40,000 nucleotides of DNA, taken from positions 382,296 to 422,295 of the forward strand of contig JBCDIW010000002.1 of the NCBI GenBank assembly GCA_038748515.1, in the 5' to 3' direction. Under the pieces are notes generated by a model. The model searched no databases. It was not told the DNA's origin and worked only from the letters and a program-made list of their open reading frames with translations. Shown piece after piece: positions 38,664 through 39,169 of the stretch (positions are counted from its first letter, which is position 1; each line of letters starts with the position of its first letter). A program made the translations under genes and the position numbers. Source of the DNA: Pseudomonadota bacterium. GTDB lineage: Bacteria; Pseudomonadota; Gammaproteobacteria; Pseudomonadales; Halieaceae.

Positions 38664-38787
38664 GAGGGCTCGGACTCCCGCTGGCCGGCTGGCGGGACGC
38701 CAAAAAGCGGCCATCCATGGCCAGGCTTATCTCGCGCCATCCAGGCGCTCGGTACCCGCCAGCCGGCCAGCGGGAGTCCAAGCCCTC
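38664..38787. repeat. 124-bp hairpin element, copy A (33-bp arms, 58-nt structured core)
   Basis: GAGGGCTCGGACTCCCGCTGGCCGGCTGGCGGG ... CCCGCCAGCCGGCCAGCGGGAGTCCAAGCCCTC with one mismatch. The core contains two small hairpins (GGCCATCCATGGCC, GCGCCATCCAGGCGC). Confidence 0.85.
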
Positions 38788-39045
38788 TGCACTGAGCGAA
38801 GTTCCAAGCGAAGTTTCCGCGAATCGTGTCGCATGCTCCAACGCTCTCGCAGCTGTGCATGCGTACGGGGGGGCATGGCGATTATTTTTAACCATAAACG
38901 GCGGCGAACGAGATAAGGCGGAATGCGCTCCGCCTAGTAGACTCAGATCGCTGCGTTACACGTGGACAAGGCGTGCCGTATTGAGGATTTCACCGCCGCC
39001 CAGATGAAGCCACAGCCTACCCACCTCAAACACTGCACGAGCGGA

Positions 39046-39169
39046 GAGGGCTTGGTCTGGTATTCCGCTTCTGACGGGTACCGAGCGCCTGGATGGCGCG
39101 AGATAAGCCTGGCCATGGATGGCCGCTTTTTGGCGTCCCGTCAGAAGCGGAATACCAGACCGAGCCCTC
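39046..39169. repeat. 124-bp hairpin element, copy B (inverted relative to A; same core and outer stem, different inner stem)
   Basis: GAGGGCTTGGTCTGGTATTCCGCTTCTGACGGG ... CCCGTCAGAAGCGGAATACCAGACCGAGCCCTC. The central roughly 58-60 nt are the exact reverse complement of the copy A core. Confidence 0.85.

Follow-up and report, generated by a model that had tools for sequence, protein, structure and literature searches.

Between the genes lnt and leuS, in a 40,000-nucleotide (nt) stretch from the genome of a marine Halieaceae bacterium (contig JBCDIW010000002.1, positions 382,296 to 422,295; the whole of this stretch is termed here the window), lie two inverted copies, A and B, of a 124-bp hairpin element. 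The comparisons described here give good support to the view that these are divergent Halieaceae members of the TwoAYGGAY family of structured RNAs (Rfam RF01731), and they suggest a probable role as decoys for the RNA-binding protein CsrA/RsmA. The leuS gene starts with an ATG at 38528 on the minus strand, so that copy A ends 135 nt upstream of it (an earlier reading of the window, made before any database was searched and called below the sequence-only reading, had put this distance at 125 nt); copy B lies 259 nt downstream of the lnt stop codon, which is at 39429-39431. A LeuS homology search assigns the locus to the Halieaceae, the homologues in Congregibacter and Pseudohaliea being 80-82% identical and the one in Halioglobus 79%; looking up LeuS and LptE of the window as exact proteins gave no match.

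The two copies share a core of 62 nt with 0 mismatches; the window contains it just these two times (38695-38756, plus strand, and 39077-39138, minus strand), against 0 occurrences expected by chance. In each copy, 33-nt arms that are 97% complementary to one another are separated by 58 nt and form a stem, termed here P1, of which the outer 10 bp, GAGGGCTCGG/CCAAGCCCTC, are common to A and B. Within the core are two mini-hairpins, whose loops read CCATCC on the plus strand of A. The sole position in P1 that is not a Watson-Crick pair reads C·A on one of the strands but U·G on its complement; for copy A the U·G strand is the leuS-sense strand. When this strand is folded as RNA, copy A (minus strand) gives -105.4 kcal/mol, with a z-score of -12.7 relative to shuffled sequences, and copy B (plus strand) -93.0 kcal/mol, with a z-score of -13.5. 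On both sides of hairpin 1 stands GA/GA, possibly forming tandem G·A pairs. All of this agrees with the sequence-only reading as far as the latter went. Its description of the inner stems as completely different is borne out by the 20 variable positions, which agree at 8/20, that is, at chance level, but not by the inner 3 bp (GGG/CCC) and the adjacent CTGRC, which both copies have in common. The coordinates of these features are collected in Table 1.

Table 1. Copies A and B and the features that surround them in the lnt-leuS region of the window.
Feature	Position	Strand	Sequence or remark
Copy A, TwoAYGGAY-like element	38664..38787	-	strand given is the sense strand (GGAUGG loops, U·G wobble), the same as for leuS
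Copy A, P1 5' arm (RNA sense)	38755..38787	-	GAGGGCUUGG-ACUCCCGCUGGCCGGCUGGC-GGG
Copy A, hairpin 1	38734..38748	-	GCGCC-UGGAU-GGCGC
Copy A, hairpin 2	38709..38722	-	GGCC-AUGGAU-GGCC, then GCUUUUUGG
Copy A, P1 3' arm	38664..38696	-	
Spacer between divergent A and B	38788..39045		258 nt; fast-evolving
Copy B, TwoAYGGAY-like element	39046..39169	+	strand given is the sense strand; lnt and leuS are on the opposite one
Copy B, P1 5' arm	39046..39078	+	GAGGGCUUGG-UCUGGUAUUCCGCUUCUGAC-GGG
Copy B, hairpin 1	39085..39099	+	GCGCC-UGGAU-GGCGC
Copy B, hairpin 2	39111..39124	+	GGCC-AUGGAU-GGCC
Copy B, P1 3' arm	39137..39169	+	overlaps tandem unit 1, which begins at 39140
116-nt tandem repeat, 2.4 copies	39140..39416		diverged lnt 3' end (~68 nt) plus downstream sequence up to the lnt-side arm of B

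The window was scanned against Rfam at curated and then at permissive thresholds. At the gathering thresholds no family matches anywhere in the window; at permissive ones RF01731, whose gathering threshold is 43 bits, aligns with copy B at 40.7 bits (plus strand, full model 1-168) and with copy A at 34.1 bits (minus strand, full-length alignment), and the aligned anatomy agrees: a long outer stem and two hairpins with UGGAUGG loops. Sister elements that the same core pattern retrieved from Halieaceae and from further Proteobacteria exceed the threshold (46.7 bits for L039, from a Haliea metagenome-assembled genome (MAG), 51.2 for L088 and 45.1 for L109; L numbers designate the collected loci), and copies from Lachnospiraceae/Roseburia score 104-126 bits. 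Because the sister elements pass, the window copies appear to be the low-scoring end of one continuous family; because their own scores are below 43 bits, they are filed as divergent relatives of TwoAYGGAY rather than as curated members. Sub-threshold Rfam matches to microRNA (miRNA) precursors and to VA RNA were rejected as a generic resemblance among long hairpins (miRNA 50.8 bits against a cut-off of 110).

As described in 2010 (Weinberg et al., PMC2864571), TwoAYGGAY is a motif of gamma-Proteobacteria and Clostridia whose closing stem is often of great length and almost perfect, and which has several copies in a genome; the RF01731 seed alignment likewise contains several copies from a single Psychromonas genome. 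Gardner and Eldai, who report tandem G·A pairs for the family, proposed it to be a CsrA-binding small RNA (sRNA) (PMC4333381), and Rfam places it in clan CL00106, Csr-Rsm binding. The window copies share with this family a long P1 of variable sequence, which closes both hairpins with 33 bp including one U·G; two (A)YGGAY-loop hairpins; GA/GA at the first hairpin; covariation both in P1 and in the hairpin stems; and several copies per genome. Hairpin 2 has the loop AUGGAU; hairpin 1 has C-UGGAU, in which GGAU is kept and the first A is lost (the orthologous hairpin in L150 reads CAGGGAU). Unlike a typical TwoAYGGAY, therefore, the window element has a CUGGAU pentaloop instead of AYGGAY in hairpin 1, and its P1 is longer and more perfect. 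The core fits a known RNA family, near the threshold here and above it in sister elements, which is an outcome that the sequence-only reading had itself named as refuting it; the novelty that it implied was therefore set too high.

Relatives were collected in several ways. A first scan of a genome collection, for two GCCWTGGATGGC hairpins 8-30 nt apart, used a pattern that excluded the window's own hairpin-1 variant, GCCTGGATGGC, and so sampled the wider family and not the window subfamily; it yielded at least 120 loci, including ones from Lysobacterales, Halieaceae, Pseudomonas, Pantoea, Marinobacter, methylotrophs and Clostridia. A metagenome scan with a corrected pattern yielded 28 loci, among them L121, which has a near-identical core and yet another stem. 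BLAST searches against plasmids and E. coli found no match. A covariance model (R1), built from six close copies (A and B of the window, A and B of L150, L151 and L121), scores the window copies at 141.5 bits (A) and 142.2 bits (B) and finds about 40 sense-strand elements in Halieaceae-type loci. Within the collection, the Stenotrophomonas MAG SMAG_U3491 has at least 17 near-identical copies of the Lysobacterales version, stems and flanks included and mostly at contig ends (loci L003, L014, L017, L019, L031, L038, L042, L047, L048, L064, L067, L082 and L115), a high-copy repeat that breaks the assembly. Another set (L021, L024, L034, L057 and L118) resembles a single syntenic copy across genera, with the 3' flank ccgaagcc followed by GTTGCC repeats.

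The six close copies have a consensus consisting of P1 (33 bp), a 4-bp inner helix and two hairpins, with double, pair-preserving changes at 26 of the 33 P1 pairs. Across 38 elements, 97.4% of the pairs in the inner 24 bp of P1 are canonical when each arm is matched with its own partner, versus 45.7% when arms are crossed between elements; P1 arm identity between elements is 33%, and every position occurs with three or four pair types. The hairpin stems covary as well (GGCC, GUAC, GCAC/GUGC, GCGAC/GUCGC). When G·T and A·C were counted in 72 non-redundant elements under a symmetric scoring that treats both alike, the GGAUGG strand was found to have 99 G·T versus 20 A·C (p = 9e-14); hence pairing is selected on the GGAUGG strand, either as RNA or as one specific strand of DNA. 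Selection on single-strand structure, with the GGAUGG strand as the functional one, was one of three models offered by the sequence-only reading, and the compensatory changes in orthologues and in the 38 relatives, the G·T excess and the conservation of the hairpins together make it well supported. That the active form is RNA, and not single-stranded DNA, is likely.

Which parts of P1 are constrained is indicated by two independent pairs of paralogues, namely A and B of the window and, in Haliea sp. E17, L009 and L120 (which are at unlinked loci with different flanks): in both pairs the ends of P1 are common and the middle is randomised. Across the Halieaceae type, moreover, P1 keeps a length of 27-34 bp and a basal boundary of the form 5' RGA/GG ... 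CC/GG 3' (the slash marking the boundary), often with an A·G, G·G or U·G pair 3-8 bp from its base and often with YGGCAC within 12 nt in the 3' flank. (A recurring TGGCAC in the 3' flanks was considered as part of a sigma-54 promoter and rejected, since its spacing to the GC element, checked by eye, misfits.) Because the ends of P1 are common in both paralogue pairs and its base is conserved across the Halieaceae type, the 10 bp that A and B share are regarded as a constrained segment, and not as evidence of a cassette swap. The middle of P1 is a segment that is required only to pair, and stems that look replaced are what such a segment normally produces.

Orthologous lnt-leuS loci show over what distances the element persists. 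In L150 (LeuS 94% identical) A and B are both present at the corresponding places; L151 (91%) carries a single element in B's orientation, from 11 nt after the lnt stop; and L152 (89%) and L153 (87%) have no element in the lnt-leuS region. In L154 (85%), the lnt-leuS spacer has, at ~2760-2835, a perfect but unrelated 19-bp hairpin (GCGGTAGCACCCCTCCGCG), whose loop is 24 nt long and which is devoid of GGA hairpins. In the comparison of the window with L150, identity is 98% for A and 97% for B, versus 56% for the spacer, 62% for the tandem unit and 78% for the leuS leader; of the four-fold degenerate sites of leuS, 36% differ between the window and L150, and 44% when the window is compared with L151. 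Among the few differences of A's orthologue in L150 are a compensatory pair (C-G to U-A) and a C replaced by U, which creates G·U in the sense strand alone. Since the hairpins are 97-98% identical and their flanks 56-62%, purifying selection evidently acts in this lineage on the complete hairpins, stems included; over a slightly longer time scale, nevertheless, gain or loss of the element occurs. The single element of L151 has left flanks like those of B and right flanks like those of A; a deletion between CC(A/G)AGCCCTC in the outer stem of B and its direct repeat in that of A would fit this arrangement. Its P1 is identical to that of B at 20/33 positions, nearly all changes being compensated, and the P1 of B in L150 at 32/33. 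In a MAG whose LeuS is 100% identical to that of the window, the contig (L149, 1-35) begins where core and arm of copy A meet, the inverted pair having broken the assembly.

Elements of this type are usually arranged as the window copies are. The search with R1 gave 13 inverted pairs with members 41-390 nt apart and no tandem pair; 10 of the pairs are divergent (window, L150, L121, L116, L039, L062, L120, L074, L002 and L079) and 3 convergent (L035, L009 and L041). It follows from inverted pairing that such a locus has one sense copy on each DNA strand. Neither the inverted-pair arrangement nor the conserved base of P1 appears in the portion of the 2010 supplement at hand. Patchy presence and copy number make the mobility of the family evident.

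Each of 39/39 cores contains exactly two GGA(U/C)G motifs, and the loop variants are CCAUGGAUGG (52 occurrences), GCCUGGAUGG (8), ACAUGGAUGU, CCAGGGAYGG, GACAGGACGUC and CCACGGAYGG. The two GGA loops of an element are 26 nt apart. For CsrA/RsmA, the consensus obtained by SELEX (the systematic evolution of ligands through exponential enrichment) is RUACARGGAUGU in a hexaloop on a short stem, and dual-site bridging spans 10-63 nt (PMC7652899). The loops of the element fit the A(N)GGA-in-loop rule of CsrA/RsmA sites, and 26 nt is within the range that one dimer would bridge; that is, the element has multiple exposed GGA loops at bridging distance, as do Csr/Rsm-type RNAs. It thus resembles CsrB and CsrC, as well as RsmX, RsmY and RsmZ, in carrying GGA in short-hairpin loops that fit the SELEX consensus, in their spacing and in belonging to the same clan. 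CsrB-type sponges, however, have 4-22 sites and come from one or two dedicated genes, whereas the window element has two sites, a long enclosing duplex and many dispersed copies; and, unlike for these sponges, no GacA/UvrY-type promoter or terminal intrinsic terminator was found for it (a GacA box was not specifically searched for).

Further GGA hairpins were seen beside the element and elsewhere in the collection. Directly beside copy A, at 38795-38818, is a direct repeat, AGCGAAGTTCCA / AGCGAAGTTTCC, which on the sense strand reads GGAAACUUCGCU UGGAACUUCGCU and places two extra GGA motifs just 5' of copy A. Arrays of 5-6 of the same GGA hairpins with a period of ~35 nt occur in L127 (~587-856), L131 (~67-336) and L141 (~1971-2280), where the neighbours on the opposite strand are, respectively, a tRNA 3' end, a tRNA-like 3' end (no tRNA gene being confirmed there) and tmRNA; these arrays resemble the layout of CsrB/Rsm sponges, and no Rfam family matches them at threshold. 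In L132 a second copy of the 5S rRNA gene (375-543) differs from the normal copy (87-203) by an insertion of ~63 nt with two GGA hairpins (GCCUGGAUGGCC ... GCCAUGGAUGGC), and a 5S rRNA copy with the insertion is also present in L123, L135, L139, L140 and L146; here the module of two hairpins looks like a portable insert within a different RNA.

These observations are best explained by a dispersed structured-RNA module that is probably a CsrA/RsmA-binding decoy on a double-stranded stalk. According to this explanation, the GGAUGG strand folds into the 33-bp P1 leading to a three-way junction and to two short hairpins, each with an A(N)GGA loop. The core and both ends of P1 are constrained in sequence, while the middle 13-20 bp need only to pair, so that paralogues drift, by compensatory change, to unrelated but still complementary sequences. 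The RNA would offer two GGA hairpins, at the spacing described, to a single CsrA/RsmA dimer, and thereby act as a decoy or sponge unit; the long P1 may be a clamp or processing stalk that lets the module work in any carrier transcript, a role that is speculative. The family itself is dispersed, variable in copy number and mostly present as inverted pairs. The decoy function is reasoned from the loops, their spacing, the clan and the CsrB-like arrays. A motif search for csrA in the window and in all collected loci gave no match, in a sample too small to be informative.

Several observations weigh against this explanation. Neither window copy reaches the gathering threshold of RF01731. Between 38450 and 39500 no sigma-70-like promoter and no terminator at the ends of the elements was found, so that nothing like the own promoter and intrinsic terminator of a Csr/Rsm sRNA was found here, although a GacA box was not specifically looked for; the terminator-like sites present consist of hairpin 2 plus CUUUUUGG inside each of A and B, the other two being in the tandem-repeat units, and not every member of the family has the U-run after hairpin 2. 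Stems of 33 bp with just one wobble are commoner in DNA palindromes than in sRNAs. The sole copy in L151 is antisense to both of its flanking genes. A few pattern matches are in MAGs labelled as Actinobacteria, which to our knowledge are usually without CsrA. Selfish DNA would be just as compatible with the patchy presence, with the several copies in a genome and with the breaking of assemblies at the element. Finally, the P1 of B differs at 13/33 pairs from that of L151 and at 1 from that of L150, which is not clock-like.

The decoy explanation can be extended to a promoter-less, dispersible cassette, in which P1 would be a ruler-type processing stalk (for RNase III or a similar enzyme) that frees the two-GGA module from a host transcript, and in which the inverted pair would guarantee a sense copy whichever strand is transcribed. 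The features that suggest this are the P1 length of 27-34 bp, the conserved basal junction, the recurrent non-Watson-Crick pair near the base and the flanking YGGCAC. A more exotic variant, suggested by 1 versus 13 changed P1 pairs although the neutral distances are similar, is that the middle of P1 may be replaced in jumps instead of being compensated gradually. So specific an extension is regarded as doubtful. P1 is like RNase III stalks (such as the stems of rRNA precursors) and pri-miRNA-like hairpins in having ~3 helical turns of arbitrary sequence between defined basal and apical junctions, a likeness that is by analogy only.

Among rival explanations, the one that survives best, although it too is unlikely, is that of a selfish mobile DNA hairpin (MITE-, REP- or PATE-like, MITE standing for miniature inverted-repeat transposable element), functioning as single- or double-stranded DNA, with the small hairpins as dimer sites for a transposase or HUH nuclease; it is compatible with an RNA function. 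It would account for the several copies per genome, including the Stenotrophomonas repeat (at least 17 near-identical copies, mostly at contig ends), for the patchiness among close relatives (present in L150 and L151, absent from L152 and L153), for the contig break inside copy A in the MAG with identical LeuS, for long near-perfect inverted repeats and for the inverted pairs; and the G·T bias equally allows one specific single strand of DNA. It is opposed by the stems, which differ between copies in a way that the terminal repeats of a MITE do not, and by the absence of target-site duplications: the longest match between an element's own flanks is distributed as it is between the flanks of different elements. 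No transposase or RAYT gene is nearby in the window (related loci were not systematically checked). The identity of 97-98% in hairpins versus 56-62% in flanks implies purifying selection at the level of the host, which also argues against selfish DNA, as do the loops, which obey the A(N)GGA rule of an RNA-binding protein, and the GA/GA around hairpin 1, which recalls the tandem G·A pairs of TwoAYGGAY (PMC4333381).

Known DNA repeats provide a similar contrast. Like REP, BIME and REPIN sequences, the element is a short intergenic hairpin repeat with several copies, often in inverted pairs; in REPINs, however, the stem is conserved (GTAG-type REP), the loop is variable and there is an association with RAYT, whereas here the apex is conserved and the stem variable, and no RAYT-like open reading frame was noted near the elements, though no systematic search was made. 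Like MITEs such as Correia, ERIC and RUP, it is non-coding, dispersed, ~120 nt long and bounded by terminal inverted repeats, and such MITEs, too, can fold as RNA and affect transcripts; they have common terminal repeats and a target-site duplication, whereas each copy in the window family has its own stem and no duplication. Like integron attC sites, it conserves structure over variable sequence, folds strand-specifically as a single strand and has conserved non-paired positions in the stem. Unlike attC, it has stem ends (GAGGGCUUGG/CCGAGCCCUC) without the GTTRRRY R/L core sites, its neighbours are lnt and leuS with no integrase or cassette array, and what is conserved is the apex, and not, as in attC, the stem base only.

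A second model of the sequence-only reading supposes that a core of ~60 nt inserts at the apex of pre-existing hairpins, or that the stem is an inverted copy of a flanking target, so that the stem would be local. It draws on the tandem repeat beside copy B: the lnt-side arm of B is the first 30 nt of the 116-nt unit, which is itself homologous to the lnt 3' end (p<0.0005), and units 2 and 3 contain orphan copies of this arm without a core. (The repeat ends exactly at B's arm/core junction, and in a comparison of the window with L150 (3210-3347) the orphan arms, together with the neighbouring GGTGCCAGTCC..CCGAG, are conserved far above the rest of the unit.) The model could also appeal to the stem at the same site in L151, which is 20/33 identical to B's, about as identical as the flanks; to the fact that every copy has its own stem; and to the insertion of a two-GGA-hairpin module in the 5S rRNA paralogue. 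Beyond B's distal arm, however, the sequence shows no homology to the start of the unit, which in the other units comes after the arm (p 0.2-0.9); hence B does not resemble a core inserted together with a copied arm into an array that continues, and insertion of a core plus distal arm into such an array was rejected. Orphan arms, moreover, occur at this locus only, and none were found for 37 other elements; the element-free relatives L152 and L153 have no 30-bp hairpin at the site; and, because the unlinked paralogues L009 and L120 share stem ends, as do A and B, the stem evidently travels with the element. With orphan arms confined to one locus and the array not continuing, the model gains no support and is judged very improbable.

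No better placed is the possibility that copy A is a cis-regulatory leader of leuS. Copy A is in the leuS sense, at 135 nt from the ATG, and this position is kept in L150; yet A is absent from the leuS leaders of L152-L155, the sole L151 copy is antisense, members of the family are present in many intergenic settings that have nothing in common, and as inverted pairs, and the region shows no T-box-like or attenuator feature, nor the window any other Rfam match. The least plausible explanation, the remaining model of the sequence-only reading, is a programmable stem whose variable P1 middle would be a guide pairing with a target RNA or DNA elsewhere: this would suit the hypervariable middle between conserved ends in two independent paralogue pairs, the 87-89% complementarity of B's 5' arm to the orphan arms 116 and 232 nt downstream, and the better conservation of those arms in L150 than of the rest of the unit, but within the 40 kb no second match to A's stem exists at up to 3 mismatches and B's stem matches the adjacent duplicates only, no extra arm matches occur near 37 other elements, both supposed guide strands are locked in a duplex, and no effector gene lies beside the window pair (neighbours in related loci were not examined), all of which leaves the model without support.

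Other repeats in the window are located away from the element. At 33120-33252, apparently between two convergent genes, a 14-nt unit, ACAGTCTCGAAGGT, is repeated 9.5 times with 94% identity (its length is not a multiple of three); an 8-nt unit, GTTCAGCG, is repeated 8 times at 3901-4014; 13-nt units occur 4 times at 25605-25656 and 3.6 times at 31509-31555; and a 12-nt unit, GCTGCTTTTGCT, occurs 3.8 times at 34135-34224, within a wider array of ~6.7 copies of a shifted 12-nt unit.

For annotation practice, this analysis suggests that odd MITEs should be compared with Rfam at sub-threshold scores before they are called new. Since 2010 TwoAYGGAY has been listed among RNA motifs with no function demonstrated by experiment; in the literature searched, no experimental test of its function is reported, and the CsrA-decoy idea of 2014 is still a hypothesis. 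The Halieaceae copies provide a clean natural experiment, in which the core and hairpins have been frozen over ~0.5 substitutions per synonymous site, while the stem middles have been randomised between paralogues, and which adds a strong G·U strand bias and an inverted-pair architecture. We know of no Csr/Rsm antagonists in the Cellvibrionales/Halieaceae; if the link to CsrA is true, these elements would be antagonists of this kind there, of an unusual dispersed, two-site, stalked type.

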